From NCBI GenBank assembly GCA_947054455.1, contig CAMRWN010000001.1, positions 74,966 through 138,965 of the forward strand: a stretch of DNA of 64,000 bases. The letters are read 5' to 3'. Shown piece by piece: positions 6,668-38,700 of the stretch. How positions within the stretch are numbered: position 1 is the stretch's first letter; every line of letters begins with the position of its first letter. The notes below the pieces were generated by a model that was given only the letters and a program-made list of their open reading frames with translations, had not been told where the DNA came from and ran no database searches. The translations under genes and the position numbers were made by a program. The DNA comes from an uncultured Alphaproteobacteria bacterium. GTDB lineage: Bacteria > Pseudomonadota > Alphaproteobacteria > Rs-D84.

Positions 6668-6677
6668 TTGTATAATC
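6668..6677 (+). promoter_or_regulatory. Extended -10 promoter element TTGTATAATC upstream of virB8
   Basis: A TGnTATAAT-type extended -10 lies ~78 nt upstream of the virB8 GTG start. It is related to, but not identical with, the TGTGATATAAT motif found elsewhere in the window. Confidence 0.4.
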
Positions 6678-6754
6678 TGTATTTTATGCACTTTTTGCTT
6701 GCGCATGTCCGCCGTTTTTTTCTACAATCGCATTATCACGAGGGGGAGAAAAAC

Positions 6755-7432
6755 GTGCAAAACCGCATAGAACCGCCAATTTTGCTATCCAGACTGCTGA
6801 CATTCACATTTGCCGCGGCCTTGGTTGTGCTGTTCGCGCTGGTCATGACACTGGCAAAAATGTTTCCCCTGAACCGGCCCGAAGTGTTTTTTCTGACGAC
6901 CCAGAATCCCGCAAATCTGGAAATGTATGTCAATGAAATGCCGCCGGACGATGCAAATATGGATAATTACAAGCGCATGTTCATACGCGAATACATCAAG
7001 GCCAGGAACGAGGTTAATCCCGCACCATCGGCCATGGCAAAGAAATGGAACGCGGCCGACGGCGTTGTACGCACATGGTCCGCGACCGACGTGTTCGCCG
7101 ATTTTATGCAAACCGCGCTGTGGACAGACCTGATGACGGACGCACCGGATTTCGATTTTTCCTGTTCGGTGGAGTTCAAACCGGGCGCCATAACAAAATA
7201 TTCGACGGACGGCAGTACATATACCGTAAATTTTGCCTGGTTTTGCACAGATAATTATGGACAGACCGCCAAAAAAGATTATACAATAAAGATAAAGCTG
7301 GCAACAGACGACAACGCCGCGTTAAAATGGGCGGACCGGTTGGAAAATCCGTTGGGGATTCGCGTTGTAGAATATTCGGTCGAATCCGGCAACGGCGACC
7401 CACTGAACGCACTGGGGTCGGCAAGACAATAA
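6755..7432 (+). CDS. virB8: Type IV secretion system VirB8-like protein
   Basis: The ORF runs in frame from 6668, but the best start is the GTG at 6755, preceded by a strong RBS (GAGGGGGAGAAAAAC). The protein is ~225 aa with a short cytoplasmic N-terminus, one TM helix (LLTFTFAAALVVLFALVMTL) and a periplasmic domain that ends in the VirB8-family NPLGxxV signature (ENPLGIRVVEY). It is followed by virB9 and virB10 homologues. Confidence 0.8.
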   Translation: MQNRIEPPILLSRLLTFTFAAALVVLFALVMTLAKMFPLNRPEVFFLTTQNPANLEMYVNEMPPDDANMDNYKRMFIREYIKARNEVNPAPSAMAKKWNAADGVVRTWSATDVFADFMQTALWTDLMTDAPDFDFSCSVEFKPGAITKYSTDGSTYTVNFAWFCTDNYGQTAKKDYTIKIKLATDDNAALKWADRLENPLGIRVVEYSVESGNGDPLNALGSARQ

Positions 7433-7451: not shown

Positions 7452-8990
7452 ATGGGCATGACGTTTTCAAGAGTGATAAAATTAAATATTTCCGCACTGT
7501 GTCTGGTTGGCACATGCTTTGCCGCAGAACCTGCCATGTTCGGCATTCAAGAGGCGTGGGACAACCCCAACGCCAACATGGCCGCAGGCAGCATAAAGCC
7601 CGGATACGCACAACTGCCGTGGTCCCAGGGCAGTGTTTTGCCAATCAAGCTGCGCAACGGAATGGTTACGATGCTGACCCTGCCCAACGGTGAACAGATT
7701 GCGGACGCCGTCGTCGGTGATTCCGGCAAGTTTGTGATTGATACGACGGTCGGCGACCGCACCATGTTCATTTCGCCAGAGGCATCAAACCAAGGCAGCG
7801 ACACAAACATGATTGTGACGGGCAAATCCGGAAACAAATACATATTCTATCTGCGGGCAGAACCGTCAAATTCCAGCGAAATCACATATTCCCAGGTTGA
7901 CGTCATACTGGACGGGAACGCGGTACTGCCGGGTGCGTCAGCGTCGGCGACCGGCGCCCAGTCAACCGGAAAGATGAGTTCGATATTTAAAAAATCGACG
8001 TCGGGCGCAGCGGGCGTTGTCGGCGTTGACGGCGAAGATTACGGCTGGATAAAATCAATGAAAATCGACCCGTCGGAATTCCGTTTCGATTTGGACATAT
8101 TCGTGCCGAACCCCGACGATTATGTCATCGCGCCGGAACGCGTGTGGCGCGACAGAATATTTACATATATTGATTTCGGGGACAAGGTTATCGCAATGAC
8201 ACAGCGACCGGTGGTTTCACTGTTGGTCGAAGGTGGCGAATCCCCGGTCGGATTCCGCACGGACGGCGAAGACGGCCGCCTGTTGATAGTAGAGGCGGTT
8301 GGCGACATGGTTCTGCGCAGCGGACAGCGCATTGTCTGCATCAAAAAGCGTGAAAAGCCGTTCCTGATTGCCGACACGGCGTCGGTCATGGCCCTGGCAG
8401 AGGCGAATGTCGCCCAATCCATGATGTCCGGACAGTCGCTGAACAATATTGCATACACAATGGACCAGAACGCGATAAACGCGGCCGGGATAAATTATAC
8501 TGGCACGCCTGTGATGATTGGCAACACCGCATCAAGTGCCGGCGCGGGATACTACATGCCGGCGGGATTTTCCACCGCCGCCACATACGGCGCAACACCG
8601 ACGGGCACCCCCGTCATGATGCCGACCGAAAGAATAACGGCGGGTTCATATTTGCCGCAATCAAACATACCGCTGATTACCAGCAACCAATCCGGGGTCG
8701 CGGTGGAACTGAAATCCGATACATCAATCAAGGCACTGGACGAATACTGGGTTGGCCTGCTGGCAAAATTCAGCGGCGAAAACGGTGTGGGCGTGCTGAC
8801 CCCTTACAAGGACATGGTGTTCTTTGCGGTTGACGAACAGGGTGTCGGTGATTTGGGCGCGGGTTCGTCAACGGCGCGCCTGTATCGCCTGCGCATAGGG
8901 CCGATGTCAGATATTGAAACCGCGCAGAAACTGTGCGACCAGCTGTTGAAGTTCAGCGGCGCCAGCTGCAGCGTGGTGCGCATCCAGTAA
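7452..8990 (+). CDS. virB9: Type IV secretion system VirB9/TrbG-like protein with a C-terminal extension carrying a SPOR-like domain
   Basis: It has a signal peptide (ALCLVGTCFAAEP). The N-terminal domain matches the VirB9 pattern (VVGDSGKFVIDTT...TNMIVTGKSGNKYIFYLRA). The VirB9 C-terminal domain is present (IFTYIDFGDKVIAMTQ...LLIVEAVGDMVLRSGQRIVCIKK). An extra ~200 aa of Gly/Ala/Thr-rich sequence then ends in LYRLRIGPMSDIETAQKLCDQLLKFSGASCSVVRI, which resembles the second half of a SPOR peptidoglycan-binding domain. Confidence 0.8.
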   Translation: MGMTFSRVIKLNISALCLVGTCFAAEPAMFGIQEAWDNPNANMAAGSIKPGYAQLPWSQGSVLPIKLRNGMVTMLTLPNGEQIADAVVGDSGKFVIDTTVGDRTMFISPEASNQGSDTNMIVTGKSGNKYIFYLRAEPSNSSEITYSQVDVILDGNAVLPGASASATGAQSTGKMSSIFKKSTSGAAGVVGVDGEDYGWIKSMKIDPSEFRFDLDIFVPNPDDYVIAPERVWRDRIFTYIDFGDKVIAMTQRPVVSLLVEGGESPVGFRTDGEDGRLLIVEAVGDMVLRSGQRIVCIKKREKPFLIADTASVMALAEANVAQSMMSGQSLNNIAYTMDQNAINAAGINYTGTPVMIGNTASSAGAGYYMPAGFSTAATYGATPTGTPVMMPTERITAGSYLPQSNIPLITSNQSGVAVELKSDTSIKALDEYWVGLLAKFSGENGVGVLTPYKDMVFFAVDEQGVGDLGAGSSTARLYRLRIGPMSDIETAQKLCDQLLKFSGASCSVVRIQ

Positions 8991-9014: not shown

Positions 9015-11384
9015 ATGAACAAAATAAAAATGCAGTTTTCACAGTTGCGCAACACAACGCCAAAGTACGTGCAATGGCTGCTGTTGCTGGCGGCGTTTCT
9101 GGTCGTAATTATATTGTTTACGCTGATGATGACGGGGTCTAAAAAAGCGCCTGTCATTGAAAAGGAATCCACCGCTGTCAAAATAACGGTGTCTGACGAA
9201 AACATAGACTGGGCCGCGACCAAGGTCGGCCAGAAAAAGACGCAGTCGATAAAAATAACCACGACCGCGCCCGCCCGCATCGCCGTCAGACGCACCAAGG
9301 ACATAGACGGATTCAAACCGCTGGATACATGCAACAACATAGGCGAGATAACGCCCCAGTTCCCGTGTACAATAACACTGGAATATGCACCGACGCATGA
9401 AATGCCGGTTCAGGGCGTACCACTCTTTATAGATTGGCGCGGCGCCGACATGCCCGAAAGCATGAACGAAACTATCAAGATTACCGTCGTACTGGGCGCC
9501 AGCGAACCAGAACCTGCGGTAATTGCCGAACCCGTCGTCGAACCGGTACCGGCGGTCATCCCAGAACCAAAGCCTGAGCCGCAGCCGGCCCCCACCCAGA
9601 TTCAGCGCGAGATAGAGGCAATCGCCCCGTCATACGATGAAATATTCGAACCCAAGCCAGCAGCCCAAAAGAAAAAGGAAGTTTTCCAACCGCAGACCCA
9701 GGCCGAGATGACAAAAGAGGCATGCTCGGATTTCGCGTTTCCTGGATACGATACATCCGGCAACCAAATCGGCTGGATAAAGCCGGAGGGCGGTGCATAC
9801 TATTTCCATCCGTTTTCGGACAAAAACTGCGACACACCGACCGGTGTTTACAACCCGGACAACGGAATCATAACCGACATAAAAAACACTGGCAATAAAA
9901 TCGGCACCGATGCGGAACACATCGGTTATACAATGATAAGCGCTGCCGCAATCCCACAGCTGTCAAACGCGCCGTCATCAAAACGTGTAAACCGCGCGGT
10001 ACAGGCGCCAACACCAATCAACAGCACCGGCATGGCCAGAATGAGCAATGATTGGACCACGCTGACACAAAGCATTGTCTCCCCGGCACCGCAAGAAGAT
10101 GTTATTTTCGGAACAACCGGTGATGTGGTTGTTGCCACCGCCCCGTACGACCGCACATTTATTCTGCGCCAGTACAAGCCGATTCCGGCAACAATCGTCT
10201 CTGACGTTCGCGCCGACACCGCGCTGGCGAAGGATAATTTGAAATTCCCCGTACGCGCAACCGTCGACCGCAATGTATATTCCGACAACGGTCGCACAAT
10301 TATCATACCGACGGGAACCCTGCTGATGGGATACGTATCGGGCGATGTGCCGGGCCCCTATAAGGCAATCGGCCGCATGAACATAAAATGGTACCAGTTT
10401 GTTTTGCCCAACGGGGTTGAATTTAATTTCGAAATCGGAGACGAACCGGAATCCGCCGACTCTCAGGGACGCATCGGCGTACCCGGCCGTGGCAGCACGG
10501 ATTACATGGAACAGTTTGTGATGCCGATGCTGACGGCGATTGTACCGGCGGCGGTGAATATGATTGCACCTGTCGCGGACAAGTTTGTAAACCAGATTGA
10601 CCTGGACAACAACACCGTCGTGCAATCCGGCACGCTGCGTTCGTCCGAACTGGCCAAGAACGAAATTATAACCGCATGGAACCAGGTTGCGCAAAAGCTG
10701 ATGGTGGACATGATGGACAACACCGTGCCGCCCTTTACAATCCCTGCCGGCACACGCATAACCGTATACGCCCCGACCGATTTGGCGGTATCATGTACGG
10801 ACTCTACAAAAAAATGCTATATGGAAGACCTGCGCAGCAAAGCGAATAATAAGCGCACGAATCCTAAGTGGAATGCGACCGAGGCAGATGATGATTCCTG
10901 GGTTGGACAGGTACGCTCATTCAATTCGCAACAATATTGCACCCAGGATGCACAAGGTTTATGGACAGCCCAAGAACGTTGCGCGCAATATGGTGTATGT
11001 GGCAACTATTCATACAGAACGTTGCTGCTGTACTGCCAATCGCTGAACTATCAGTCAAAAAACAACGCCCGCCAAGAACAGTTGTTCCAGAACCAGCAAG
11101 ATGCATCAAACAAAAACAGCATCGCCAGCATGGGCGGCGTCGGTTCGACGCAATATAATGAAAATGTCCTGGGATTGCAGTACGCCGACGAAGACAAGAC
11201 GACAATAGTAAATCCGTTCCAAACCCTGCCCAAGGAAGAGGCGCCCGCCGCACTCACATGCATGGACGGTTCCAATCCGGACATGAACGGATGCTGTGCC
11301 GGGGAAATATATACCGACATGGGCGATCAGGGATTCAATTGCTGTCCTGAAACGGGTGGCGACTGTTTCCCGCCGATACTGTAG
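9015..11384 (+). CDS. virB10: Type IV secretion system VirB10/TrbI-like protein (789 aa) with a Pro-rich linker and a Cys-rich C-terminal extension
   Basis: There is an N-terminal TM helix (WLLLLAAFLVVIILFTLMM) followed by a Pro-rich region (EPEPAVIAEPVVEPVPAVIPEPKPEPQPAP). The VirB10/TrbI barrel domain is present (VYSDNGRTIIIPTGTLLMGYVSGDVPG...WYQFVLPNGVEF...GRIGVPGRGSTDYMEQFVMPMLTAIV). About 200 further C-terminal residues contain 14 Cys. Confidence 0.85.
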   Translation: MNKIKMQFSQLRNTTPKYVQWLLLLAAFLVVIILFTLMMTGSKKAPVIEKESTAVKITVSDENIDWAATKVGQKKTQSIKITTTAPARIAVRRTKDIDGFKPLDTCNNIGEITPQFPCTITLEYAPTHEMPVQGVPLFIDWRGADMPESMNETIKITVVLGASEPEPAVIAEPVVEPVPAVIPEPKPEPQPAPTQIQREIEAIAPSYDEIFEPKPAAQKKKEVFQPQTQAEMTKEACSDFAFPGYDTSGNQIGWIKPEGGAYYFHPFSDKNCDTPTGVYNPDNGIITDIKNTGNKIGTDAEHIGYTMISAAAIPQLSNAPSSKRVNRAVQAPTPINSTGMARMSNDWTTLTQSIVSPAPQEDVIFGTTGDVVVATAPYDRTFILRQYKPIPATIVSDVRADTALAKDNLKFPVRATVDRNVYSDNGRTIIIPTGTLLMGYVSGDVPGPYKAIGRMNIKWYQFVLPNGVEFNFEIGDEPESADSQGRIGVPGRGSTDYMEQFVMPMLTAIVPAAVNMIAPVADKFVNQIDLDNNTVVQSGTLRSSELAKNEIITAWNQVAQKLMVDMMDNTVPPFTIPAGTRITVYAPTDLAVSCTDSTKKCYMEDLRSKANNKRTNPKWNATEADDDSWVGQVRSFNSQQYCTQDAQGLWTAQERCAQYGVCGNYSYRTLLLYCQSLNYQSKNNARQEQLFQNQQDASNKNSIASMGGVGSTQYNENVLGLQYADEDKTTIVNPFQTLPKEEAPAALTCMDGSNPDMNGCCAGEIYTDMGDQGFNCCPETGGDCFPPIL

Positions 11385-11622: not shown

Positions 11623-11964
11623 ATGACACAAACACAATCCGCATGCACACCGGAAAAATTTCAAAATTCGGAACAACTGTGGTTCTGGTTTCTATATTCC
11701 AAATCGGTGCAGTCCGGATTCATACGCACACATGGCAACGCGACGCGACGGCCGTGCGAATTGTTGGACGTTGAAACCCTTATCACTAAATTGTATTTGT
11801 CCGGCGCACTGACGGATGAACAACTGGCCGTTATGAAGCAGTTCGGCGACAGGCGCCGCGCACCGCACCAATACATATGGGCGGAAAATCGGGCGGCCGA
11901 CCTGTGGCGCCGCGCAATGGCGACACTGCAGAACGCCGCAGTCAAACGCGGCTGGATAGAATAG
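11623..11964 (+). CDS. Hypothetical protein (113 aa)
   Basis: An ORF with a strong RBS (AAAGGAGAGG) 7 nt upstream of its ATG. No recognisable family. It lies immediately downstream of the virB8-10 operon terminator. Confidence 0.5.
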   Translation: MTQTQSACTPEKFQNSEQLWFWFLYSKSVQSGFIRTHGNATRRPCELLDVETLITKLYLSGALTDEQLAVMKQFGDRRRAPHQYIWAENRAADLWRRAMATLQNAAVKRGWIE

Positions 11965-17776: not shown

Positions 17777-18946
17777 CTAATGAAATATATAGCTGTCGAT
17801 GCCGGCCGCCGCCGCCGCGGATTTCAATTTTCCGGCCGCCGCATCCGACAGATTGTTTACACGCACGCGGTGCATGCCGGTTCCGGTGTCTTCGACGACC
17901 GGCGAAACCCCCAGTTTGTTTTTTACATTCCGCACCTGGTTTTGCGCGGCTGCGCGCGATGAAAACGCCCCGAACTGCACACCGGCATGGCCCGCCTTCA
18001 ACGCGGGCGCGGTGGCGGCCGATACCGGCGCGGCGCCCGTTGCTGCGTTATATGCCGCAGAAAATGTCCACGGCGGCGTGCTTGATACCGGTGCGGCGAC
18101 AGGCGCGGATGATGTCTGACGCGAAACGGGCGCCGCCTTTTCCCCCAGCATTTTAAATCCGCGGTTCAGCATCTGTGCCGCAATATTGGCACGAACATCC
18201 TTGTTCTCGGCCCCCAGCACGACCGCCAAAACACGCGAATTCCCGCGGTGCGCGGTCGCAACCAAAGAATATTTTGATTTGTTGGTGAATCCGGTTTTCA
18301 TCCCGTCGCATCCCGCGTACATCCCCAGCAAACGGTTTCCGTTTGTATATGTTTTGCCGTTGTATGTCCACGACTTTATCCCGAAATATTTCCAGTACTG
18401 CGGAAAATGCTTATACACCGCCATAGACATCAGCGCGATATCACGCGCCGTCGACAGGTGGTCGTCATCAGGCAATCCGGACGAGTTTTCAAAATTTGTC
18501 TGCGACAGTCCGATTTCAGATGCAACGCGCGTCATCAAGGTTGCAAAATTCCCTTCCTTGCCGCCCTTTAAATTTTCCGCCAACACGCGCGCCACATCGT
18601 TGGCACTGTGTACGGCGACCGCCTTAATCGCGTCTTCGACGGTGATTTTACTGCCCGCGGGCAGCCCCAGTTTCACCGGCGACGCATTCGCCGCCGTCTG
18701 CGACACAATCAGATAATCATCCAAATGCAGGCGTCCATGTTCCAGCGCATCAAACGTCAGATACAGCGTCATGATTTTCGTCAGGCTGGCGGGATAATTC
18801 AAATCACCCGCATTTTCAGAATACAAAACGCGTCCTGAATCCATATCCGCAACCAGCGCCGCGCGATACTGCGCCCCATGCGCCGCAATTGCGGGCATCG
18901 CCACCGCGGCCAGCGCGGCAAAAAAAACATTTCGAATATTCATCAA
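17777..18946 (-). CDS. dacA: D-alanyl-D-alanine carboxypeptidase (PBP5/6 family) fused to a C-terminal SPOR domain
   Basis: It has a signal peptide, the SxxK active site (ASLTKIMT), the SGN and KTG motifs, and a C-terminal SPOR-like segment (GVQFGAFSSRAAAQNQVRNV...GMHRVRVNNLSDAAAGKLKSAAAAAG). Confidence 0.85.
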   Translation of the reverse strand: MMNIRNVFFAALAAVAMPAIAAHGAQYRAALVADMDSGRVLYSENAGDLNYPASLTKIMTLYLTFDALEHGRLHLDDYLIVSQTAANASPVKLGLPAGSKITVEDAIKAVAVHSANDVARVLAENLKGGKEGNFATLMTRVASEIGLSQTNFENSSGLPDDDHLSTARDIALMSMAVYKHFPQYWKYFGIKSWTYNGKTYTNGNRLLGMYAGCDGMKTGFTNKSKYSLVATAHRGNSRVLAVVLGAENKDVRANIAAQMLNRGFKMLGEKAAPVSRQTSSAPVAAPVSSTPPWTFSAAYNAATGAAPVSAATAPALKAGHAGVQFGAFSSRAAAQNQVRNVKNKLGVSPVVEDTGTGMHRVRVNNLSDAAAGKLKSAAAAAGIDSYIFH

Positions 18947-21064: not shown

Positions 21065-23002
21065 ATGCGGAATTGGTTGCAAAATAACATCGGGGACGCC
21101 TTTGTGTTCGCACCGTTTATAATTGCGGGCGGGGCCGCGCTGTATTTCACATGCGGCGCCGAACCCGGCATACCAATGTGGGCCGCAGGCGCGGCGATTG
21201 CGGCATCTATCATGATGCTGCAAAAAACACAAATTATTACGCGGGCAATCGCACTGTTTGCATTCGGATTTTTCTATGCCATGGTCTATACGAATGCAGT
21301 CGACACGCCGCTGATGACCCGAAACATGCGCGACGCCGCATTGGACGCAACGGTTGAAAACATAGATTACACACCCGACAAACACAGAATTTATCTGCAG
21401 GTCGATGCATCCGACATAAATGCCGGCGACGGTCGTGCAATCGTGCGTGTTTCCGCGCCAGGGGATTCGACGCCACCGCAAATCGGCGACAAAATCCGTG
21501 CAAACGTCGGCTTGTTTCGTCCCGCGCCCGCGGATGCACCCGGCGCGTTCGACTATGCACGCTGGGCATATTTCAACAAACTGTCCGCGACTGGATACAT
21601 GGACGAATACACAGTACTGGCCGACAACGGCGGCGGTGGAATAAATTCCGTGCGAAAGTTTCTGCATGAAAAGGCCAATTCCCACCTGACAGACGGGCTG
21701 GTGCTGGGATATAAAAACATCCTGACCCAGGACGAGCGGCAATATTGGACCACCGCCGGCATCGGACACGTCTGGTCAATCAGCGGATTTCACATGACAC
21801 TGGTGGCGGGATGGCTGTTTGCAATATTCTATATGATATTCAGATGCATTCCACGCATCACCCGTGCATATCCGGCGCGCATTCCAGCGATGTTCGCCGC
21901 ATGGTGCGGACTGGTCGGGTACCTGATGATTTCGGGCGTGGGCGTCGCGACGGTGCGCGCATTTCTGATGACAAGCCTGATGTTCGCGGCGGTGGCCCTG
22001 GGGCGCAGCGCGATTTCAATGCGAAACATATGCATTGCGTTCTGCATTATATTTCTGATTAATCCGCACAATGTCATGCAGGCCGGATTCCAGTTGTCTT
22101 TCGCCGCGATTTTCGGTCTGATTTGGTTTTGGGGCGTTGTGCGTCCTAAAATGCCGCGTGGCAGAATATCAAAAATTATTTTCACAGCGGTGATGACATC
22201 GCTGGTGGCGACAATATTCACAACGCCGTTCGTCGCCGCGCACTTTCACACCATACCGACATACGGGCTGATTGGCAATCTGACGCTGCTGCCTATATTT
22301 TCCCTGTTGATAATGCCGCTGGTTATGGTGGGGACGTTTGCGGCCGCGATCGGAATTCATGCCCCGCTGGAATTGGCGCATTGGATTTATGATTTTGCAC
22401 TGCTGGGCGCGCGGCAAATATCGGCGCTGCCGATGGCTGAAATAATAACACCGCATATTCCAGGTATCGCACTGGTCATTATGACGGCCGGACTGGTTGG
22501 ACTGATGTTTATCAAGCCCGGCAGATATAAAATCAACGTTATTATATGCAGCCTGGCCATGGCCGCCGGATGCACGATGACGGCATTGGCGCCGCGTCCG
22601 ATGTTTTTCGCAACAAGCGACCACGAACTGGTCGCGTTCGCGAACGATGATGCAATCGAGTTCAACAAGGCGCGCGCATCAAATCACTATTTTACATTCG
22701 ACACATGGAAGCAGATGCTGGGGCTGCCCGCCGGCACCAAAAATATTCGCCGCGCACACGACCGGGGCGTGTACGATTTCAAGACGCAGAACTTTCACTT
22801 GGTATACATTCAAAAATTCGTGCCGCTGATGCGCAACATTGAAAAACTGTGCCATGACCCGGACATTGATTACATAGTGTCATATTTTGATATTCAATCG
22901 CCGTCATGCGGGGACAAAATTCTGCGCGGCGGATTTGTAATCGACCCGTCGGGTCGTGTCAGAAACGCGCAGCTTAATCGTCGCTGGCATAATCACAGCT
23001 GA
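21065..23002 (+). CDS. comEC: ComEC/Rec2 family DNA internalisation channel protein; no C-terminal metallo-beta-lactamase domain evident
   Basis: A 645-aa ORF with an N-terminal DUF4131-like region and the polytopic competence domain (HVWSISGFHMTLVAGWLF, VRAFLMTSLMFAAVALGRS, QLSFAAIFGLIWFW). Confidence 0.8.
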   Translation: MRNWLQNNIGDAFVFAPFIIAGGAALYFTCGAEPGIPMWAAGAAIAASIMMLQKTQIITRAIALFAFGFFYAMVYTNAVDTPLMTRNMRDAALDATVENIDYTPDKHRIYLQVDASDINAGDGRAIVRVSAPGDSTPPQIGDKIRANVGLFRPAPADAPGAFDYARWAYFNKLSATGYMDEYTVLADNGGGGINSVRKFLHEKANSHLTDGLVLGYKNILTQDERQYWTTAGIGHVWSISGFHMTLVAGWLFAIFYMIFRCIPRITRAYPARIPAMFAAWCGLVGYLMISGVGVATVRAFLMTSLMFAAVALGRSAISMRNICIAFCIIFLINPHNVMQAGFQLSFAAIFGLIWFWGVVRPKMPRGRISKIIFTAVMTSLVATIFTTPFVAAHFHTIPTYGLIGNLTLLPIFSLLIMPLVMVGTFAAAIGIHAPLELAHWIYDFALLGARQISALPMAEIITPHIPGIALVIMTAGLVGLMFIKPGRYKINVIICSLAMAAGCTMTALAPRPMFFATSDHELVAFANDDAIEFNKARASNHYFTFDTWKQMLGLPAGTKNIRRAHDRGVYDFKTQNFHLVYIQKFVPLMRNIEKLCHDPDIDYIVSYFDIQSPSCGDKILRGGFVIDPSGRVRNAQLNRRWHNHS

Positions 23003-32671: not shown

Positions 32672-33113
32672 TATTCAACTCCATCTTTGTTAAAACATTG
32701 TTCATTGTCTTCAGCGCGCCGGTCAGAACCTCTTCATCCTCGCGGCTGATGTTTTCGAACATGTGCGCAATGTCTTCACGGAACACCTCCATCGCCTGGC
32801 GGGCTATTTCCTCGCCTGCGGGCGTGCAGGAATACCATGTATTGCGACGGTCGTGTTCGTCAACGGTACGCGCGACCATTCCGTCCTGTTCCAGTTTGCG
32901 GAACGTGGCGCACAAATTCGGCGCCGGAACCATTTCGCGGCGTGCGATATCTTTTAGACGGGCACGCCCCCCAATGCTCAGCCGCACCAAAACCATCAGT
33001 TGGTTGCGCGGATATCCGGTACGGATATGCGGTGCGCGCTTTAACCGGTCAGCCAGTCTGTCTAAAATCAAGATATTTGATTCAAACAAACGAATAAATT
33101 CCTTGCGGGCCAT
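32664..33113 (-). CDS. MarR-family transcriptional regulator
   Basis: A 149-aa ORF with a winged-helix motif (RLKDIARREMVPAPNLCATFRKLEQDGMVAR). It is the first gene of the efflux operon. Confidence 0.85.
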   Translation of the reverse strand: MARKEFIRLFESNILILDRLADRLKRAPHIRTGYPRNQLMVLVRLSIGGRARLKDIARREMVPAPNLCATFRKLEQDGMVARTVDEHDRRNTWYSCTPAGEEIARQAMEVFREDIAHMFENISREDEEVLTGALKTMNNVLTKMELNND

Positions 33114-33257
33114 ATTTTATCCTTTATAATAACATCGTTCGGCCTTTAATAATTAAAAACCTGAATTATTATATTTTTTAACAAATTAATTGCAAGCACA
33201 AAATTAAAAAAATTTCAAAAATCTTTGCCTGAATATTGAAAAAAGCATTTTTTGTTA

Positions 33258-33285
33258 TTGCAAAAGCCGTAAAGTTCTTTATAAT
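33258..33285 (+). promoter_or_regulatory. Sigma70-type promoter for tRNA-Gln (TTGCAA-N16-TATAAT)
   Basis: The -35 TTGCAA lies at 33258-33263 and the -10 TATAAT at 33280-33285. The tRNA 5' end is 12 nt downstream. Confidence 0.55.
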
Positions 33286-33297
33286 CTGTGATGCCTT

Positions 33298-33371
33298 TGG
33301 GGTGTCGTCTAATGGTAGGACAAGAGATTTTGGTTCTCTTTATCATGGTTCGAATCCGTGCGCCCCAACCA
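33298..33371 (+). tRNA. trnQ: tRNA-Gln (anticodon UUG)
   Basis: The sequence is TGGGGTGTCGTCTAATGGTAGGACAAGAGATTTTGGTTCTCTTTATCATGGTTCGAATCCGTGCGCCCCAACCA. It has a 7-bp acceptor stem, anticodon loop ATTTTGG(T), a GGTTCGAATCC T-arm and an encoded CCA. Confidence 0.85.
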
Positions 33372-33383
33372 GTTTCAAAACAA

Positions 33384-33410
33384 ATGCCCCAGACGGGGCA
33401 TTTATTTTGA
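33384..33410 (+). terminator. Rho-independent terminator after tRNA-Gln
   Basis: The hairpin aaatgcccc-agac-ggggcattt is followed by a T-run. Confidence 0.65.
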
Positions 33411-33636
33411 AATGATGTATCGCGCGGATTGTAATCGTCCGTTTCACACGATTACAGCAAAACGTTATTAACGTTTTGTACGCGTTTTGTTCCAAAACGC
33501 TAGTGGGGCCATCCCCACACCCCTGTGTGCGCCCCAACCAGGATAAACAAAGTCAGCACACAGGCGACTTTTTCTTTGGTTTTCCAGTGTTTGATTTCGG
33601 AAAATAGCAATTTTTTTGAACTTTCGAACTTTTTTA

Positions 33637-33645
33637 TGATAAAAT
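33637..33645 (+). promoter_or_regulatory. Extended -10 element TGATAAAAT placed 9 nt upstream of the protease ATG (leaderless-type architecture)
   Basis: TATGATAAAAT-gcacatgaa-ATG. No -35 match. The architecture parallels the TGTGATATAAT promoters found elsewhere in the window. Confidence 0.4.
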
Positions 33646-33654
33646 GCACATGAA

Positions 33655-34581
33655 ATGCGTAAGATATTTGTATTTTTATCATGTTTAATAACAGCGCCAG
33701 CGATTGCGGCTGATGATGCCTGCACAAAGCCGAAAGAGTTCACAGTCGATAAACGTTGCTATGTTACCAGTGCACAAAAAAAACAAAAGCCATTTAATGC
33801 AACAGTCGGCTTAGTTAATGGTGATTTAAAAGCATACTGTACGGGCACAATCGTGAAGGGATACTACGGATATAACGGCGATAAAGCAACCACACAAGAA
33901 AAAGAAACCATATATGTTTATACTGCCAAACATTGCACCGACCGCAACAAAGACGGCAAACCCGACACTTATCTGGATATAGTATTACAAAATGGCGACA
34001 GTTATAAAATTAAATTTGCACGTGCTGGTCAATACAAGATTCTGTCAGACGAAAAAGCTGCAGGCGACTATGCATTATATACTATAGATGAGCAAACTGA
34101 CATTCCAGGCAGCAAAATACCATATACAACAATAAGCGACAAATGGGGGTTCCTGGGACTCAGACAACTGGATGCACGTGTTGTTGGATATGGCACATTA
34201 AAGATTATGTCCGACAAAGAAATAAAAATATTCAAAAGCAAATATATTAATTTTATGAAACAACAAGGTATGTCTGCCAAGGATTCTGGTGTAAAGATAA
34301 GCACGAAGTGGGGTACAAAATTTATGCAAAACTTAGATCATGACTACCAGAACGATTTATTCGCCAACCATAGCTTGAAAGTTTCAAATTGTAAATACCA
34401 CAGTGTCGGCACACAAATAGGCTGTCAAGCATGGAGCGGTAATTCTGGGGGTGGCATATTTGATAATAATGGCGAACTGATGGGAATTTATACCAGAGGG
34501 CATCGTATCGTAGGCGGGGAAAATCATGCAGCCTCAATTACCACAACAAAATACCCATCAACAATTCCTATCGCATTTTAA
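33655..34581 (+). CDS. Secreted trypsin-like (S1/chymotrypsin-fold) serine peptidase, island-encoded
   Basis: It has a signal peptide (FVFLSCLITAPAIAADD) and a His motif (YTAKHC). An Asp lies in DYALYTID, and the Ser motif GNSGGG is a variant of GDSGGP. The gene is AT-rich relative to the window. Confidence 0.65.
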   Translation: MRKIFVFLSCLITAPAIAADDACTKPKEFTVDKRCYVTSAQKKQKPFNATVGLVNGDLKAYCTGTIVKGYYGYNGDKATTQEKETIYVYTAKHCTDRNKDGKPDTYLDIVLQNGDSYKIKFARAGQYKILSDEKAAGDYALYTIDEQTDIPGSKIPYTTISDKWGFLGLRQLDARVVGYGTLKIMSDKEIKIFKSKYINFMKQQGMSAKDSGVKISTKWGTKFMQNLDHDYQNDLFANHSLKVSNCKYHSVGTQIGCQAWSGNSGGGIFDNNGELMGIYTRGHRIVGGENHAASITTTKYPSTIPIAF

Positions 34582-34601
34582 CAAAATTTAAGGAGCGCAC
34601 A

Positions 34602-34955
34602 ATGAAACAAAAAACAGATAAGATAAAAAACTTGAAACGCGCTGGTACGATAATTGCAATCGCGGGCAGTTTGGCACTGGGTAGCGTGTCAATTTCACGC
34701 ACCACCAAAGACGACTCCACAGATCCTACAGAAAACAAGGAATATATTAAACACTTGGAACATGTTGCGGATGAAATGACACATGAGCAAAAACTGCAAT
34801 TTATTCACGATGGAAAAGAAGTATTGAATAATCTGCAACAGAAAATTGATTCTGATGAAACCAATCCCGAAGAACGCTTTGAGGCATTAAGATCAAAACG
34901 TTTGGTTAATAAGGAAATTGAAGTAATGCAGAAAAAGTTGAATAACGGAAGATAG
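34602..34955 (+). CDS. Hypothetical small secreted or membrane-anchored protein (117 aa)
   Basis: A good RBS (AAGGAG) lies 7 nt before the ATG. The N-terminal hydrophobic segment is TIIAIAGSLALGSVSIS. The gene is AT-rich and followed by a terminator hairpin at ~34984..35010. Confidence 0.5.
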   Translation: MKQKTDKIKNLKRAGTIIAIAGSLALGSVSISRTTKDDSTDPTENKEYIKHLEHVADEMTHEQKLQFIHDGKEVLNNLQQKIDSDETNPEERFEALRSKRLVNKEIEVMQKKLNNGR

Positions 34956-35029
34956 ATATCGGCAGAATATTCTACTAATACAAAGTCGCATCTAATGGTG
35001 CGATTTTTATATTCAGATTGCATACGAGC

Positions 35030-35974
35030 TCAAAACGCTTCTTCGCAACGGTGGGTTTCTTTAATAATCTTGTTTATCTTGGTCAAACTCGCAATATTAA
35101 ATCCGGTTGAAACACCACTCAGCACAGTTGTCGCACCCGCCATCACATTCGCGGTTGTATTCAGGTTCTTTTCCTTCTTTTTGCCAGATTCTGAATTATC
35201 ATTACGAATGCCCGATGAATTTGCCACGGCACTGTTTACTGTGCCGGTTGCACCGGTAACGCCCCCCGCAATACTTGTTCCCATGACAACAGTTTGCTGT
35301 TTTTCAAATTTTTCTATTTCTGTGGCGTCAATGTTTCCACACCATGTTTTTATATTATCAAGTTTCCGAACAATTGGATTTTCCATAGGATTCAGCCCGC
35401 CTACATCCGCATTTTTGACCGATGCAACCGCGTTATTACATGCAGTTATCTGCTGTATTAAATCAGACTGATTATGATTGACACCCGACACAATCGCAGA
35501 CGTAATATTTGTTGCCGTTGCACCCGCCATCAGGCCCGTACGCCAATTTCCCATTCTTTTTGAACGTTTTTCCGCATCCACCAATTGCTGTTGCAATTCG
35601 GCAATTTCAGACATCGGCAGTATAACACTGTTAAAGAAAGTATCCGGGCTCATTTGCGCCACCGTATCGGGATTACACCCGCCGGCATCACAAATCTGCT
35701 TTTCCAAGCGTTCTATTTCTTTATCTATCTGAGCCTTGGATAATCCTGCATATAATGCACCACCAGCCGCAACGGCACCAACACCGGACACAACCGTGCC
35801 TGCCGTCGTCATATTTTTCAAATGTTGCAATTCATCGGATATACCACTACAAACAGCGCTTGTTGCATTATAAAGTTGTGTAAGTTGTAAAATTCTGTCC
35901 GCATCATCTGCATGCGCTGATGTATTAAGCGTCAACACCGCAACCATAAACAAGAACAAATAACCGGATTTCAT
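35030..35974 (-). CDS. Hypothetical secreted protein (314 aa) with Gly/Ala/Thr-rich segments and scattered Cys
   Basis: It has a signal peptide (MKSGYLFLFMVAVLTLNTSAHA). The ATG lies 9 nt from a TGTGATATAAT extended -10. The gene sits in the AT-rich island. Confidence 0.6.
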   Translation of the reverse strand: MKSGYLFLFMVAVLTLNTSAHADDADRILQLTQLYNATSAVCSGISDELQHLKNMTTAGTVVSGVGAVAAGGALYAGLSKAQIDKEIERLEKQICDAGGCNPDTVAQMSPDTFFNSVILPMSEIAELQQQLVDAEKRSKRMGNWRTGLMAGATATNITSAIVSGVNHNQSDLIQQITACNNAVASVKNADVGGLNPMENPIVRKLDNIKTWCGNIDATEIEKFEKQQTVVMGTSIAGGVTGATGTVNSAVANSSGIRNDNSESGKKKEKNLNTTANVMAGATTVLSGVSTGFNIASLTKINKIIKETHRCEEAF

Positions 35975-35982
35975 GATGATGA

Positions 35983-35995
35983 ATTATATCACAAC
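35983..35995 (-). promoter_or_regulatory. TTGTGATATAATT extended -10 promoter motif; 9 nt separate TATAAT from the ATG of the 35030..35974 gene
   Basis: This is an exact copy of the 11-mer TGTGATATAAT, read on the minus strand. Confidence 0.55.
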
Positions 35996-36295
35996 ATCTA
36001 AATACAATCTATAATAAATAACATAGGTTAGCTGTTGTCCTATGTTTTTAATATATCTATAACTTGCTCGATTTCCGGTGCCATTTTTATCAAATCATTA
36101 TAATAATTAGTTCAAAGATTGTTTATCACGCACAACCAAAAACACCCCGCGGGGTGTTTTTATTTATTTACACTTTCGAGCTGCGTGGTTGTGGTCGGCC
36201 AGCATGATGCATTGATTTTTATTTAGCAGAAACTATATATATGGTATAATTTATTGGATATTTGATTTTATTGTAAAAATAACAGAGTAGCGCTT

Positions 36296-36913
36296 ATGAC
36301 AAAAGATAGTTTTTACCAAGGGATCAAACAGATAGAACTACATAAATTTTATCATGGTTCCGCAACAAAAATCAAAGGCGATTTTTTACAACCCAGAGAA
36401 CAATTTAATAGCATTCAAAACGAACGTGTAGTCGGAGCATTTGTCACATCCGACATAAAGCACGCTAAGTTTTTTGCGATTTGGAAATGTTTAACTGGTG
36501 GTGGCCAAACACAACAAGATGTAAAAAAAGGGACAAAAAGAATTTTTTTTGAAAAATTGTCTGATAATATAAAACCAGAGTTCAATTTGTATACAGTATA
36601 CGAAGCGCCCGACACAAAATTTATTCACGACAAAGGCACAGAATATTATTCGCCTGCACCAATAAAAATCTCAGAACACCAAATATGCAATACTGTTGAA
36701 GAAATAGAAAAATTAGGATATGAAATTTATGTATTAAACGAACCATTAAAAAACAAACCCGACAAACAAACTAATAACAATCAAGCTGTCCAATCTGAAA
36801 TGCATCAAGCAATTGAAAATGGAGCGTATCATCGTGTTGATATTGCAAACTTAATTGAACAACAGAAATCAAAAAACATATTTTATAAACTATTTAATTG
36901 GCAAAAAGATTAA
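36296..36913 (+). CDS. Hypothetical protein (205 aa), island-encoded, with no signal peptide
   Basis: An AT-rich ORF preceded by a TGGTATAAT extended -10 at ~36245. A terminator hairpin (aaaccgcc-aatct-gggcggttt) lies at ~36952-36975. Confidence 0.5.
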   Translation: MTKDSFYQGIKQIELHKFYHGSATKIKGDFLQPREQFNSIQNERVVGAFVTSDIKHAKFFAIWKCLTGGGQTQQDVKKGTKRIFFEKLSDNIKPEFNLYTVYEAPDTKFIHDKGTEYYSPAPIKISEHQICNTVEEIEKLGYEIYVLNEPLKNKPDKQTNNNQAVQSEMHQAIENGAYHRVDIANLIEQQKSKNIFYKLFNWQKD

Positions 36914-37098
36914 ACTGTTCGCATCACGCTGACAGACCACAACCAAGATAAACAAAACCGCCAATCTGGGCGGTTTAATATTGGTATTGGGCCACGGGTT
37001 CGCAATCGCGACAAATGTCGCCGGTTCGACTATGAGTTGGCGTTTGGCGCATGAGCGCGGCGAACGCCATACGAATGCCCCGCAGGCGCAAATGGGTA

Positions 37099-37701
37099 CT
37101 AAAGCTCCCGCTGGCGATTGCGACGTATTGTTTCCTTTATTTCCGCGCGGCGGATTTGCACGCTGTATATCAAATCCAATACATGCCGCCCATGACAGCG
37201 ACGCCCCAGAACACGGCTGTAATATCTCCGGGACAAAACAGGCGCATCATTGCTGCCCAAAACCTGGTATGCGGCCGCATCCAAAGACGATGCAAATGTT
37301 CCTTCATCCATATTAATTTCGTAAACAAAGTCCGGACTTAAAACAGCACGCGACGCAACCGCGGTCGTATCCGCACGCATGCCGGCGTCTTTTTTGCGCA
37401 TGCGCTGTTCCAATTTTTTATTTTTCGCAACCAATTCATTGTACAACGCGTTCAGCCGCACCGTGTCATGCGCCAGCATTCCTATCAGCGACGCGTCCGC
37501 AACAGGACAATGAGACGTATCACGCATATGGCGCGCGGCATAGTTATAGTGCAGCCATACCGGCCCCATATAGGCCACAAATTTATGGACTGGTTCCTCT
37601 TCCCAGACCTGGATATAAATTCTTTGGCTGCATGCGGTCGCCATCAGTGTCATCGACGCCAAGGATGCCTTTAGAACCGCATTTTTTATCTTGTTTTCCA
37701 T
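37099..37701 (-). CDS. Hypothetical lipoprotein (200 aa)
   Basis: The N-terminal signal ends in the lipobox LMATAC. No family recognised. Confidence 0.5.
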   Translation of the reverse strand: MENKIKNAVLKASLASMTLMATACSQRIYIQVWEEEPVHKFVAYMGPVWLHYNYAARHMRDTSHCPVADASLIGMLAHDTVRLNALYNELVAKNKKLEQRMRKKDAGMRADTTAVASRAVLSPDFVYEINMDEGTFASSLDAAAYQVLGSNDAPVLSRRYYSRVLGRRCHGRHVLDLIYSVQIRRAEIKETIRRNRQREL

Positions 37702-37837
37702 TTGTTTAAATTCCGGATATGCATAATTTCATAGTTATTCCTGTAAACATAACCACAAATCAGCAAAAATGCAATATGACGATTTTAAAAAAAATTTGAT
37801 GACAAAAATCAAAACAATGTTATTATAGGGTACGTCC

Positions 37838-37912
37838 GCTCCCATCGTCTAGCGGTTAGGACATCAGATTCTCATTCTGACGACACGGGTTCGAGTCCCG
37901 TTGGGAGTGCCA
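37838..37912 (+). tRNA. trnE: tRNA-Glu (anticodon CUC)
   Basis: The sequence is GCTCCCATCGTCTAGCGGTTAGGACATCAGATTCTCATTCTGACGACACGGGTTCGAGTCCCGTTGGGAGTGCCA. It folds as a cloverleaf with anticodon loop TTCTCAT (CTC), a GGTTCGAGTCC T-arm, a G1-U72 wobble in the acceptor stem and a 3' CCA. A terminator hairpin follows (gcccc-aaa-gggc, T-run). Confidence 0.75.
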
Positions 37913-37965
37913 AGATAAAAAAATTGCCCCAAAGGGCATTTTTTTTACGCCAAACTACCCACTAA

Positions 37966-38700
37966 TCAATTTTTATCCCCGTAATACAGACGCTTGTATT
38001 CACGGTGCACGACGTTCATCAGTTCGCGGCGGGGCGTGCGCTGTTCGGCGGAAAAGACGTATGAAAAATCGCCGTACATATTGTCTTCCCAATCTATAAA
38101 GGTGGTGATTTCCATTGTTTCTGGATTCACCAAAAAATTGTCGCATATATCACCCTGGAACCATCCGTACATAAATCCGGGCGCACCCGCGTCGGCCGGT
38201 TTCAAATCGCGCAATTGGGCCGGATCCCGACGCGCGATTTCATGGATAAAAACCGCAATCTGACGCGCCAGCGTATCAATATTGGCCAACACATCTTCGG
38301 TCGACAACTGACGCAGCGTGCATCCGCGAATAAATTCATACTTGCGAACAATGTGTCCGTCATAGTCCAGCAGCTCCACCCCCGGTATCGGTATTGGCGA
38401 GACGGCATGAAACACATCGACAACACGCTTTTCACGCAGCGCAAGTTCGCGCGAATTGTCCCGGCGCAGCGGAAACTTGTATATATATTCGTCGTTAACG
38501 CCTATAATCAGATTGCGCGTCTGCTGACCGACGAACATCTTGACCCGGCGCAGCGGCTGCTTCAAATCTTTTTTAATAAACTTTATATGCCGTATTGTCG
38601 GCGAATTCAATACCGCACGCAGCGTTTTGCGCCGATGCTTGTTATAAACCAGCGCACAAATAATATTCGTAAAAAAACGCCTGATTTTTGAGCTTTCCAT
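37966..38700 (-). CDS. Phosphotransferase/kinase-like protein (aminoglycoside phosphotransferase/choline kinase fold)
   Basis: A 244-aa ORF with a Brenner-like motif (QGDICDNFLV) and a downstream IDWED motif resembling the APH catalytic and Mg-binding loops. Confidence 0.5.
   Translation of the reverse strand: MESSKIRRFFTNIICALVYNKHRRKTLRAVLNSPTIRHIKFIKKDLKQPLRRVKMFVGQQTRNLIIGVNDEYIYKFPLRRDNSRELALREKRVVDVFHAVSPIPIPGVELLDYDGHIVRKYEFIRGCTLRQLSTEDVLANIDTLARQIAVFIHEIARRDPAQLRDLKPADAGAPGFMYGWFQGDICDNFLVNPETMEITTFIDWEDNMYGDFSYVFSAEQRTPRRELMNVVHREYKRLYYGDKN

Follow-up and report, generated by a model that had tools for sequence, protein, structure and literature searches.

The insertion of type IV secretion systems (T4SSs) through the cell wall, their positioning on it and their mechanical coupling to it are only partly understood. 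Model T4SSs use separate factors, namely VirB1 lytic transglycosylases, VirB7 lipoproteins and OmpA-like accessory proteins, and the solved systems contain 13 to 16 copies of VirB9 per core complex. OmpA-like domains are carried by several machines (Dot/Icm DotK, Brucella VirB12, T6SS TssL/TagL and MotB) and LysM domains by TsaP/FimV; such modules tie trans-envelope nanomachines to the sacculus, and they usually sit on separate accessory proteins. SPOR domains, of which those of RlpA, FtsN, DamX, DedD and CwlC are the classical examples, adopt an RNP-like beta-alpha-beta-beta-alpha-beta fold of ~75-100 aa and are borne by divisome proteins or cell-wall hydrolases; in FtsN, DamX and DedD the domain lies at the C-terminus, behind a long low-complexity periplasmic linker. 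Mutual identity among SPOR domains is below 20%, yet all those that have been characterised bind denuded glycan (bioRxiv 10.1101/2022.07.01.498525). LysM, AMIN and SPOR domains have been listed together in a study of PilQ, whose AMIN domains bind peptidoglycan and serve both to place the secretin of the type IVa pilus and to hold it in position: they recognise peptide-poor (septal or polar) peptidoglycan, with recruitment to future division sites (bioRxiv 10.1101/087965).

The window analysed here, a stretch of 64,000 nucleotides, comes from Candidatus Enterousia, an alphaproteobacterium of the gut whose genome measures about 0.9 Mb (range in Enterousia about 0.75-1.0 Mb; PMC12306168). It contains a gene for a VirB9 homologue that continues into a C-terminal domain predicted to have the SPOR fold (Table 1), as in FtsN, DamX and DedD behind a long low-complexity linker. 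We establish the domain architecture, the conservation and the operon context of this fusion and, by structure prediction, the fold of its tail. The protein is made of four parts, a signal peptide (helix 7-20 in the structure model, with a putative cleavage site), a VirB9 domain that is complete although divergent, a 111-aa linker and a 99-aa C-terminal domain, and the stretch 8420..8990 that had first drawn attention encodes residues ~324-512, that is, the tail and most of the linker. Public gene calls place the start at the ATG at 7458, two codons downstream, giving a protein of 510 aa, and a 100% identical protein (P0001) is found in public assemblies.

Table 1. Features of the virB8-virB9-virB10 locus and of the fusion protein (positions in the window)
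Feature	Position	Strand	Basis
VirB8 homologue, 225 aa from GTG at 6755	6755..7432	+	Pfam VirB8 44.1 bits; gene call
VirB9-SPOR fusion CDS, 512 aa and stop	7452..8990	+	ORF list; Pfam CagX and SPOR
Sec signal peptide (predicted), residues 1-25, cut between ...LCLVGTCFA and AEP	7452..7526	+	Read off the sequence
VirB9 core, residues 54-302	7611..8357	+	Pfam CagX; alignment to TrwF (7o3j) and X. citri VirB9 (6gyb)
Low-complexity linker, residues 303-413, closing with the conserved motif SYLPQSNIPLI	8358..8690	+	Composition; pLDDT
C-terminal SPOR-fold domain (predicted), residues 414-512	8691..8987	+	
VirB10/TrbI homologue, 789 aa	9015..11384	+	Pfam TrbI 70.1 bits
Conserved 113-aa ORF after virB10	11623..11964	+	Kept after virB10 in 75/81 loci

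The first-pass annotation had called this protein a VirB9 homologue, and both its sequence and its neighbours bear this out: Pfam CagX (PF03524) matches residues 54-299 over positions 5-197 of the 198-position model (79.8 bits, against a cutoff of 34.2), and VirB8 and VirB10 homologues are encoded on either side. The scores on the NCBIfam models lie below cutoff, at 54.6 bits for VirB9 (TIGR02781, equivalog cutoff 217.7) and 19.8 bits for TrbG (TIGR02775, cutoff 180.85). Judged from these profiles, the fusion protein belongs to the CagX family as a divergent member, but it is an equivalog of neither the model VirB9 nor the model TrbG. It shares a signal peptide and a two-domain core with VirB9/TrwF (R388), TraO (pKM101), Xanthomonas citri VirB9, CagX and DotH; the core comprises an N-terminal beta-sandwich (~54-155), a variable Gly/Ala/Ser stretch (~156-200) and a C-terminal domain (~201-302). 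A Foldseek search with the full-length model gives 6gyb_B (E 3e-12) and 8rt6_B (E 1e-11); its VirB9 N-terminal domain resembles those of TrwF (TM score 0.80-0.83), X. citri VirB9, DotH and CagX. Both domains align with TrwF (266 aa) and X. citri VirB9 (255 aa), whose C-termini fall within a few residues of the equivalent of residue ~301. The ~210 residues beyond this point are therefore a genuine extension, as had been proposed at ~200 aa; canonical VirB9 proteins lack it, and the fusion is very divergent from them in sequence.

The extension begins, after the string RIVCIKKREK (293-302), with the low-complexity linker already recognised in the first-pass annotation. It is Ala/Thr/Ser/Gly-rich, with 74% of its residues being G/A/T/S/P/N/M/Y and only five being charged, and the AlphaFold pLDDT, below 40, predicts disorder. 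Across the family, its length varies from 38 to 244 aa (median 112). The tail that follows (ALDEYW at 428, RLYRLRIGP at 476, end at ...SCSVVRIQ) is modelled by AF2 with a pLDDT of 80 and the RNP-like beta-alpha-beta-beta-alpha-beta topology: beta1 415-423, alpha1 426-440, beta2 456-461, beta3 477-485, alpha2 488-502 and beta4 507-511. The three top Foldseek matches of the tail model are the RlpA SPOR domain with and without denuded glycan, and DedD, and the best named matches are SPOR domains by two independent structure-comparison methods; the closest structure of all is that of an uncharacterised exported protein, which is not a known peptidoglycan binder. At the sequence level, Pfam SPOR (PF05036) is significant: the whole protein scores 22.5 bits and the isolated tail 26.0 bits, for a gathering score of 21. 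A profile search and a fold prediction, two of the checks proposed at the outset, both came out in favour of a SPOR fold, and neither of the two outcomes named there as refuting the claim occurred. The Pfam alignment is limited to positions 40-76 of 76, which correspond to beta3-alpha2-beta4. Only these elements resemble SPOR at the sequence level; the first half of the tail does not.

Could this likeness have arisen by chance, or from the biased composition of a low-complexity C-terminus? The Pfam score exceeds the gathering threshold of the SPOR family by just 1.5 bits with half of the model covered, and a search of PDB sequences with the tail profile retrieved no SPOR chain. However, the DacA homologue encoded in the same window (17777..18946, minus strand), which carries a SPOR domain as had been stated (full-length match, 34.1 bits), likewise retrieves no SPOR chain from the PDB, and the search is therefore uninformative. 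A direct comparison of the tail with this DacA domain by hhalign gives a P value of 4e-4, for 32 aligned columns only. Moreover, the tail forms a well-ordered, conserved domain in which two cysteines are invariant, its fold is predicted with confidence, and its best named structural matches are SPOR domains by both methods. The presence of this tail is well beyond chance; it is kept in hundreds of homologues. We consider the artefact effectively refuted.

Apart from the fold, the tail and the classical SPOR domains have in common the beta3 motif YRxRxGP and the arginines of the basic patch. They differ by an additional short helix and a longer beta2-beta3 loop in the tail, and by the beta1 strand, which reads (A/S)-V/I-E-L-(K/G)-S-D instead of x-Q-V-G-A-F. 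The two invariant cysteines, C495 and C506, probably form a disulfide linking alpha2 to beta4, whereas that of FtsN links beta1 to beta4. The beta4 cysteine presumably falls at the position of FtsN C312, according to a manual alignment. In FtsN, C252 pairs with C312 (PMC6895207).

The likely binding face is where the tail departs most from the classical domains. The beta1 glutamine of SPOR domains (RlpA Q270, FtsN Q251, DamX Q351) is the one highly conserved glycan-contacting side chain, which hydrogen-bonds the MurNAc lactyl and GlcNAc N-acetyl groups; RlpA F274, an aromatic residue at the end of beta1, stacks on MurNAc, and a basic patch lies on the sheet (RlpA R302/R309/R311, FtsN R285) (PMC6895207). 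With equivalence to the SPOR glutamine set by strand register and motif rather than by a printed structural alignment, the corresponding tail residue is E419, on beta1. Among 285 unique tails, 276 have Glu at this position, 7 have Asp and 1 has Gln; the canonical glutamine is thus absent from nearly all of them. At the end of beta1, D423, the equivalent of RlpA F274, is Asp in 240 of ~287 tails, in place of the aromatic residue. The basic patch is kept in the beta3 motif YRLRIGP: R479 (Arg in 215 tails, His in 81) and R481 (Arg in 294 of 300) align with RlpA R309/R311 and FtsN R285. On the sheet, the positions whose side chains are predicted to point outward hardly vary, which is what a binding site would show.

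If the contacts described for RlpA apply (PMC6895207), a carboxylate in place of the glutamine should be repelled by the lactyl carboxylate that denuded MurNAc exposes. From the sequence of this face, with Glu and Asp replacing Gln and Phe and the arginine pair kept, anchoring to the wall appears plausible and classical binding to denuded or septal glycan unproven; as the face is non-canonical, the tail may bind something other than the fully denuded glycan recognised by FtsN, DamX and RlpA. Binding of denuded septal glycan and tethering at division sites, both proposed for the tail in the first-pass annotation, are what we infer at most, and the sequence weakens both, with Gln and Phe replaced and the SPOR sequence likeness confined to the second half. 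In a variant of the septal-recruitment reading discussed below, likewise unlikely to us, the Glu/Asp for Gln/Phe swap would retune the tail to a chemically different glycan, for example an N-deacetylated one, which would define a new specificity class of SPOR domains.

The same substitutions by near-invariant acidic residues also fit another scenario, in which the SPOR fold has been repurposed and its charged sheet face (E419, K/G421, D423, R479, R481) binds a protein or another non-peptidoglycan ligand; candidates are VirB10, through its Pro-rich or giant extensions, a component of a pilus or adhesin, and a second copy of the tail, giving a periplasmic ring. The ferredoxin-like/RNP fold serves many ligands, the SPOR HMM is blind to the first half of the tail, the top structural match is an uncharacterised exported protein, and the co-evolving VirB10 partner has very large lineage-specific extensions. 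However, the arginine pair typical of the SPOR basic patch is retained, and a linker of this length and disorder is better suited to spanning the distance to another layer than to holding a fixed contact with a protein. The full-length AF2 model, in which the tail again matches the RlpA SPOR domain, shows no docking of the tail on VirB9, which is weak evidence in the same direction. Given also that characterised SPOR domains with less than 20% identity all bind denuded glycan (bioRxiv 10.1101/2022.07.01.498525), we regard such a repurposing as rather unlikely, while giving it serious weight.

Over 81 species, for which synonymous sites are saturated, pN/pS is 0.03 for the VirB9 C-terminal domain (98% identity), 0.14 for the tail, 0.21 for the VirB9 N-terminal domain and 0.30 for the linker; the tail is thus under purifying selection, and tighter than the VirB9 N-terminal domain. 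Selection has fixed the fusion throughout a very large clade of uncultured Alphaproteobacteria from the gut. When clustered at 90% identity, the proteins of this clade form at least 1,400 clusters, and one genus alone has 264 species-level genomes. Searching for homologues with an alignment of the tail retrieved short contig-end fragments of the same genus, some of them labelled 'SPOR domain-containing protein' by NCBI, and no further lineages. Of 89 representative homologues, 12 likewise have a Pfam SPOR match, and precomputed annotations list the domain for many more. The first-pass annotation had considered the fusion undescribed. Our literature search found no paper joining VirB9 or a T4SS with a SPOR domain, and in this respect the claim stands; databases already annotate PF05036 together with PF03524 on some homologues, however, so that the architecture is not new to them.

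A related arrangement exists in long VirB9/TrbG homologues of other Alphaproteobacteria. Microvirga yunnanensis WP_262266973.1 (556 aa) consists of a VirB9 core and a ~200-aa extension, whose terminal module has the same two cysteines. Long VirB9 proteins of this type are 25-35% identical to the fusion in the VirB9 part, and their beta1-like motif is x-x-G-P-Y/F, as against E-L-G-S-D in the window-type tail. By hhalign, beta3-alpha2-beta4 are homologous between the two types (probability 93%, E 4e-7); Pfam gave no SPOR match on ten divergent Microvirga-type tails, and the kinship is seen by hhalign only. Among the 88 nearest full-length representatives, 47 have a SPOR-like tail or a Microvirga-type tail.

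The gene order virB8-virB9-virB10 is that of canonical VirB9 systems. Directly upstream of virB9, in the same operon, virB8 has its longest ORF starting at the TTG at 6668, and virB10 begins 24 nt downstream of virB9. The VirB10 homologue comprises a transmembrane anchor, an Ig-like ASH domain, a Pro-rich region, a TrbI domain (385-590) and a Cys-rich C-tail, and scores 62.8 bits on NCBIfam VirB10, under the equivalog cutoff. The 113-aa ORF, without a family match in Pfam or NCBIfam, is probably the last gene of the operon. Both virB8 and virB10 flank virB9 in all 81 loci, and the synteny is fixed as nusG / virB8-virB9-virB10-orf113 / yidC. A ComB-type DNA uptake function was considered as well, ComEC being encoded in the window and one homologue being named 'ComB9' by JGI; NCBIfam scores of 62.8 bits for VirB10 and 47.2 bits for ComB10, both far under the cutoffs, do not discriminate.

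In relatives at 32-36% identity, the same fusion lies within full T4SS operons encoding VirB4, VirB8, a VirB7-like protein, VirB8, VirB9-SPOR, a giant VirB10 and VirB11, the VirB10-domain protein having very large lineage-specific extensions. In the window, Pfam and NCBIfam scans of ~40 ORFs detected no further T4SS component, VirB4, VirB11, VirD4, VirB6, VirB2/3 and VirB7 included, and a tblastn search with the VirB4 and VirB11 of a relative against 80 Enterousia loci (+-10 kb) returned nothing. Unlike canonical VirB9 systems, Enterousia has no adjacent virB7: a search of its loci for the VirB7-like lipoprotein (relatives' motif ELKxSPCAC) gave spurious matches only. These sit at the inferred position of tRNA-Trp, from the positional offset in the window. 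Five tandem polytopic membrane proteins (46954..53527) were examined as VirB6-like candidates and had no match in Pfam, NCBIfam or the PDB; they are not similar either to the unknown genes of the relatives' T4SS operons, which encode secreted single-anchor proteins and not polytopic ones.

The Enterousia trio might therefore be imagined not to belong to a working secretion system, being instead a leftover of genome reduction or a stand-alone scaffold, with the tail as a general tether between outer membrane and wall. VirB4, VirB11, VirB7 and the second VirB8, which relatives hold in one operon, are not adjacent in the 81 loci or present in the 64-kb window, and these genomes are small (about 0.75-1.0 Mb; PMC12306168). 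Decay is nevertheless argued against by intact genes and strong purifying selection, all three genes being intact in 81 of 81 species and the VirB9 C-terminal domain having the low pN/pS given above. Scattered T4SS gene islands are moreover normal in reduced alphaproteobacteria, as in the rvh system of the Rickettsiales, and the window covers ~7% of the genome. On this evidence, a trio devoid of any secretion function is improbable.

We therefore favour, with modest confidence, the reading in which the gene encodes the VirB9 of a divergent T4SS whose SPOR-family tail most likely binds glycan and anchors the core complex on the sacculus. The system would be a divergent one of alphaproteobacterial (P-type / VirB-like) kind, with the fusion as its VirB9 subunit. 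The VirB9 domains would build two layers of the core complex, the I-layer in the periplasm and the O-layer beneath the outer membrane, with the flexible linker of ~110 residues leading to the disulfide-containing SPOR-family domain. If the stoichiometry of the solved systems applies, 13 to 16 VirB9 copies would result in a ring of SPOR-like modules hanging in the periplasm. By binding the glycan backbone of the wall, as is most likely, these modules would hold the outer-membrane core complex in place. PilQ is alike in principle, as an outer-membrane channel subunit with a wall-recognising domain, but belongs to another machine, and its module is AMIN rather than SPOR and N-terminal; function is experimental for PilQ, and deduced for the VirB9 tail.

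A further step, that the tail recruits new VirB9 to peptide-poor septal glycan, so that the core complex is built into the wall there and ends up at the new poles, seems unlikely to us at present. If true, it would be a SPOR-based counterpart of the AMIN-dependent pre-installation of the type IVa pilus, and it could spare a dedicated VirB1-type wall-cutting enzyme in genome-reduced lineages.

While classical SPOR domains are borne by divisome proteins or hydrolases, and OmpA-like or LysM modules usually by accessory proteins, the SPOR fold is here fused directly to a core subunit of a secretion system, and each protomer of the outer-membrane ring would bear one module. This suggests a built-in route of wall anchoring, or of division-site targeting, for T4SS assembly. 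The tail family represents a SPOR subfamily with an altered yet strongly conserved face, and offers a handle on the ligand specificity of SPOR domains, for which cultured Microvirga with related long VirB9 proteins provide an experimental entry point.

The C-terminal extension proposed for this VirB9 homologue in the first-pass annotation is genuine, and the sequence strings cited there lie in the protein where they had been placed. The two closest solved VirB9 proteins, TrwF of R388 (266 aa) and Xanthomonas citri VirB9 (255 aa), align with both halves of the core and end a few residues from the equivalent of residue ~301, so that the last ~210 residues of the fusion, here VirB9-SPOR, are a true extension. 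It comprises a linker, in which G/A/T/S/P/N/M/Y account for 74% of residues and only five are charged, and a final block, the tail (residues 414-512). The identical protein also occurs on public contigs as long as 340 kb, where its start is placed at the second ATG (510 aa).

Features of the window and of related loci
Feature	Position	Strand	Details
virB8	6668..7432	+	start ambiguous: longest ORF, from TTG at 6668, 254 aa; public calls (225 aa) would start at about 6755, GTG in the window, just after the tRNA-Trp/secE region
VirB9-SPOR ORF	7452..8990	+	512 aa
Sec-type signal peptide	residues 1-25		
VirB9 core	residues 54-299		Pfam CagX/PF03524, 79.8 bits (gathering score 34.2)
Linker	residues 303-413		111 residues
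Final block	after linker		~100 residues
VirB10 homologue	9015..11384	+	789 aa
ORF after virB10	11623..11964	+	113 aa; no signal peptide or family match
DacA-type D,D-carboxypeptidase	17777..18946	-	canonical SPOR domain (GVQFGAF...HRVRV)
ComEC homologue	21065..23002	+	Competence and DUF4131 domains
tRNA-Gln	33298..33371		bounds low-GC stretch
tRNA-Glu	37838..37912		bounds low-GC stretch
Predicted secreted protein	42717..44231	+	504 aa
Polytopic membrane protein	46954..48243	-	
Polytopic membrane proteins	48313..53527	+	four overlapping genes
Predicted secreted protein	56388..58619	-	743 aa; Ala/Ser-rich N-terminal region
Lipoprotein between two virB8 copies, relatives (58-66 aa)	L084 9050..9238; L086 9030..9230; L087 9087..9275; L088 8976..9152; L089 9053..9241		own locus coordinates

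The tail was thought to be a SPOR domain, and both sequence and predicted structure bear this out. Pfam SPOR (PF05036; gathering score 21) matches the whole protein with 22.5 bits and the tail alone with 26.0 bits, over HMM positions 40-76 of 76 only. The structure predicted from an alignment of 39 tails (identity down to 21%; mean pLDDT 80) has the expected ferredoxin-like fold: beta1 (415-423), alpha1 (426-440), a short helix, beta2 (456-461), beta3 (477-485), alpha2 (488-502) and beta4 (507-511). In a Foldseek search of the PDB the top three places go to the SPOR domain of RlpA, as structures with denuded glycan and without it, and to DedD (TM 0.72 on the target). The full-length model gives a confident N-terminal VirB9 domain, which resembles TrwF, X. 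citri VirB9, DotH and CagX, and disorder over residues 282-412; its tail is again confident and retrieves RlpA SPOR and DedD. A chance resemblance to SPOR is extremely improbable: two structure-comparison methods and the conservation of the tail effectively exclude it.

A scan of species-representative genomes detected relatives at 264 loci. The best-matching 80 come from MAGs labelled Alphaproteobacteria or Candidatus Enterousia, sampled from human, ruminant, horse, mouse and bird guts, one being a closed chromosome of 958,618 bp. Enterousia, of the order Rs-D84, has genomes of 0.75-1.0 Mb in which genes for rod shape and peptidoglycan are retained; it has neither flagella nor respiration (PMC12306168). 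The gene order nusG, virB8-virB9-virB10, ... yidC is found in all 81 sequences (the window and these 80 loci); the 113-aa ORF comes after virB10 in 75 of these, which makes it a probable, uncharacterised member of the operon. Among the 81, synonymous sites have reached saturation (pS about 0.7), and regions differ sharply in non-synonymous change, with pN/pS of 0.03 in the VirB9 C-terminal domain, 0.14 in the SPOR-like tail, 0.21 in the N-terminal domain and 0.30 in the linker. These values mark the tail as a functional part of the protein that is under selection.

Among 1.84 billion 50%-identity representatives, searched exhaustively, 471 VirB9 relatives were identified. A profile of the domain recognises the tail in 35 of the top 150, always at the extreme C-terminus and with VirB9 identity down to about 33%. 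A further 24 long homologues, among them those of cultured Microvirga species (WP_262266973.1), finish with a two-Cys module whose homology to the tail spans beta3-alpha2-beta4 (hhalign probability 93%); ten such Microvirga-type tails were scanned and had no Pfam SPOR match. Taken together, 47 of 88 full-length representatives have the tail or the two-Cys module. A profile of the distant full-length forms retrieves at least 1,405 clusters at 90% identity, Alphaproteobacteria wherever an organism is named.

In five distant carriers (32-36% identity), VirB9-SPOR lies in a single shared operon: VirB4, several secreted proteins of unknown family, VirB8, a VirB7-like lipoprotein, a second VirB8, VirB9-SPOR, one or two giant proteins (1,650-2,700 aa) with a C-terminal VirB10/TrbI domain, and VirB11. 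The fusion therefore belongs to a real type IV secretion system (T4SS). The lipoprotein, with a lipobox Cys and a conserved ELKxSPCAC...LPEW, is likely a VirB7 analogue. In Enterousia only virB8-9-10 are still clustered; VirB4, VirB11 and VirB7, including a counterpart of this lipoprotein, were not found in the 64-kb window or the ±10-kb flanks of the Enterousia loci. With these neighbours missing, the trio could be a relic, or an envelope scaffold without a role in secretion; we judge this reading quite improbable, as the genes are intact and under strong purifying selection in 81 species, which speaks against decay. The VirB10 homologue is unusual in its make-up: from the N-terminus it has a TM anchor, an Ig-like ASH/'choice-of-anchor D' domain (~55-135), a TonB-like Pro-rich stretch and a TrbI domain (385-590), and it is extended at the C-terminus by ~200 aa with a terminal Cys-rich block (...CMDGSNPDMNGCCAGEIYTDMGDQGFNCCPETGGDCFPPIL).

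Other features of the window were recorded. The ComEC competence-channel homologue, in a ~0.9-Mb genome, would be relevant if the VirB8-10 genes serve ComB-like DNA uptake; the evidence at hand favours neither uptake nor secretion. The five polytopic membrane proteins (406-476 aa, 5-7 predicted TM segments each) have no Pfam, NCBIfam or PDB matches, show detectable paralogy only between the 46954 and 49582 proteins, and proved unrelated to the unknown genes in the relatives' T4SS operons. A low-GC stretch (~33000..38000; 0.40 versus about 0.52-0.54 elsewhere), with a trypsin-like peptidase and several ORFs lacking family matches, may be an acquired island. The two large predicted secreted proteins are likewise without significant family matches.

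The question arises as to what the tail binds. In RlpA-glycan crystal structures the sole highly conserved side-chain contact is a beta1 Gln (RlpA Q270, FtsN Q251, DamX Q351), RlpA F274 stacks on MurNAc, and an arginine patch (RlpA R302/R309/R311; FtsN R285) holds the lactyl carboxylate, which becomes exposed when amidases remove the peptide (PMC6895207). The sequence similarity of the tail to SPOR is limited to beta3-alpha2-beta4, both in the Pfam model and in hhalign against the DacA SPOR profile of the same organism (32 columns, P 4e-4). By strand register, its beta1 V-E-L-K-S-D (family consensus I-E-L-G-S-D) corresponds to canonical L-Q-V-G-A-F, the equivalences resting on topology and motif rather than on a printed structural superposition. 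Among 300 unique tails, the Gln position (E419) is Glu in 276, Asp in 7 and Gln in 1, and the Phe position (D423) is Asp in 240; of the basic-patch arginines, R479 is Arg in 215 and His in 81, and R481 is Arg in 294. C495 (alpha2) and C506 (beta4), Cys in 298 tails each, virtually never vary and probably pair in a periplasmic disulfide. Judged from these counts, the exposed sheet face is conserved to the degree expected of a binding site, with a chemistry that differs from that of FtsN and RlpA. The DacA homologue does carry the SPOR domain ascribed to it and keeps both Gln and Phe, which the VirB9 tail lacks; two SPOR flavours therefore coexist in one small genome.

In solved core complexes, the VirB9 C-terminal domain lies immediately beneath the outer membrane, where it surrounds VirB10, and the N-terminal domain makes up the I-layer; the layers are named in entries matched by the full-length model (7o3t/8rt6/6gyb). 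A disordered tether of ~110 residues (38 to 244 across the family) that leaves the C-terminal domain can readily bridge the few nanometres between it and the peptidoglycan, and one tail on each protomer would give the complex a multivalent ring of SPOR-fold modules. We lean, by a little, towards a tail that would bind peptidoglycan and so anchor and position the core complex on the wall, its best-supported function. What the data establish is the architecture, the fold, the selection on the tail and the operon membership; peptidoglycan binding and anchoring are inferred. That the T4SS is pre-installed at the septum, or that the tail has a new SPOR ligand specificity, seems unlikely. The nearest functional precedent is PilQ, in which peptidoglycan-binding AMIN domains bring the type IVa pilus machine to future division sites and have also been proposed to give it mechanical support (bioRxiv 10.1101/087965).

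The fusion had been called undescribed. This holds for papers: our literature search found none that links VirB9 to a SPOR domain, or T4SS to SPOR in the same sense, and nothing on Rs-D84 secretion systems. It does not hold for databases, where the architecture is implicit in precomputed PF05036+PF03524 annotations on some homologues and in the NCBI name 'SPOR domain-containing protein' on some homologous fragments. That envelope machines carry modules which bind the wall is well known; what is new within this theme is the fusion of a SPOR fold to VirB9, a core subunit, and a subfamily of SPOR domains whose acidic beta1 is conserved.
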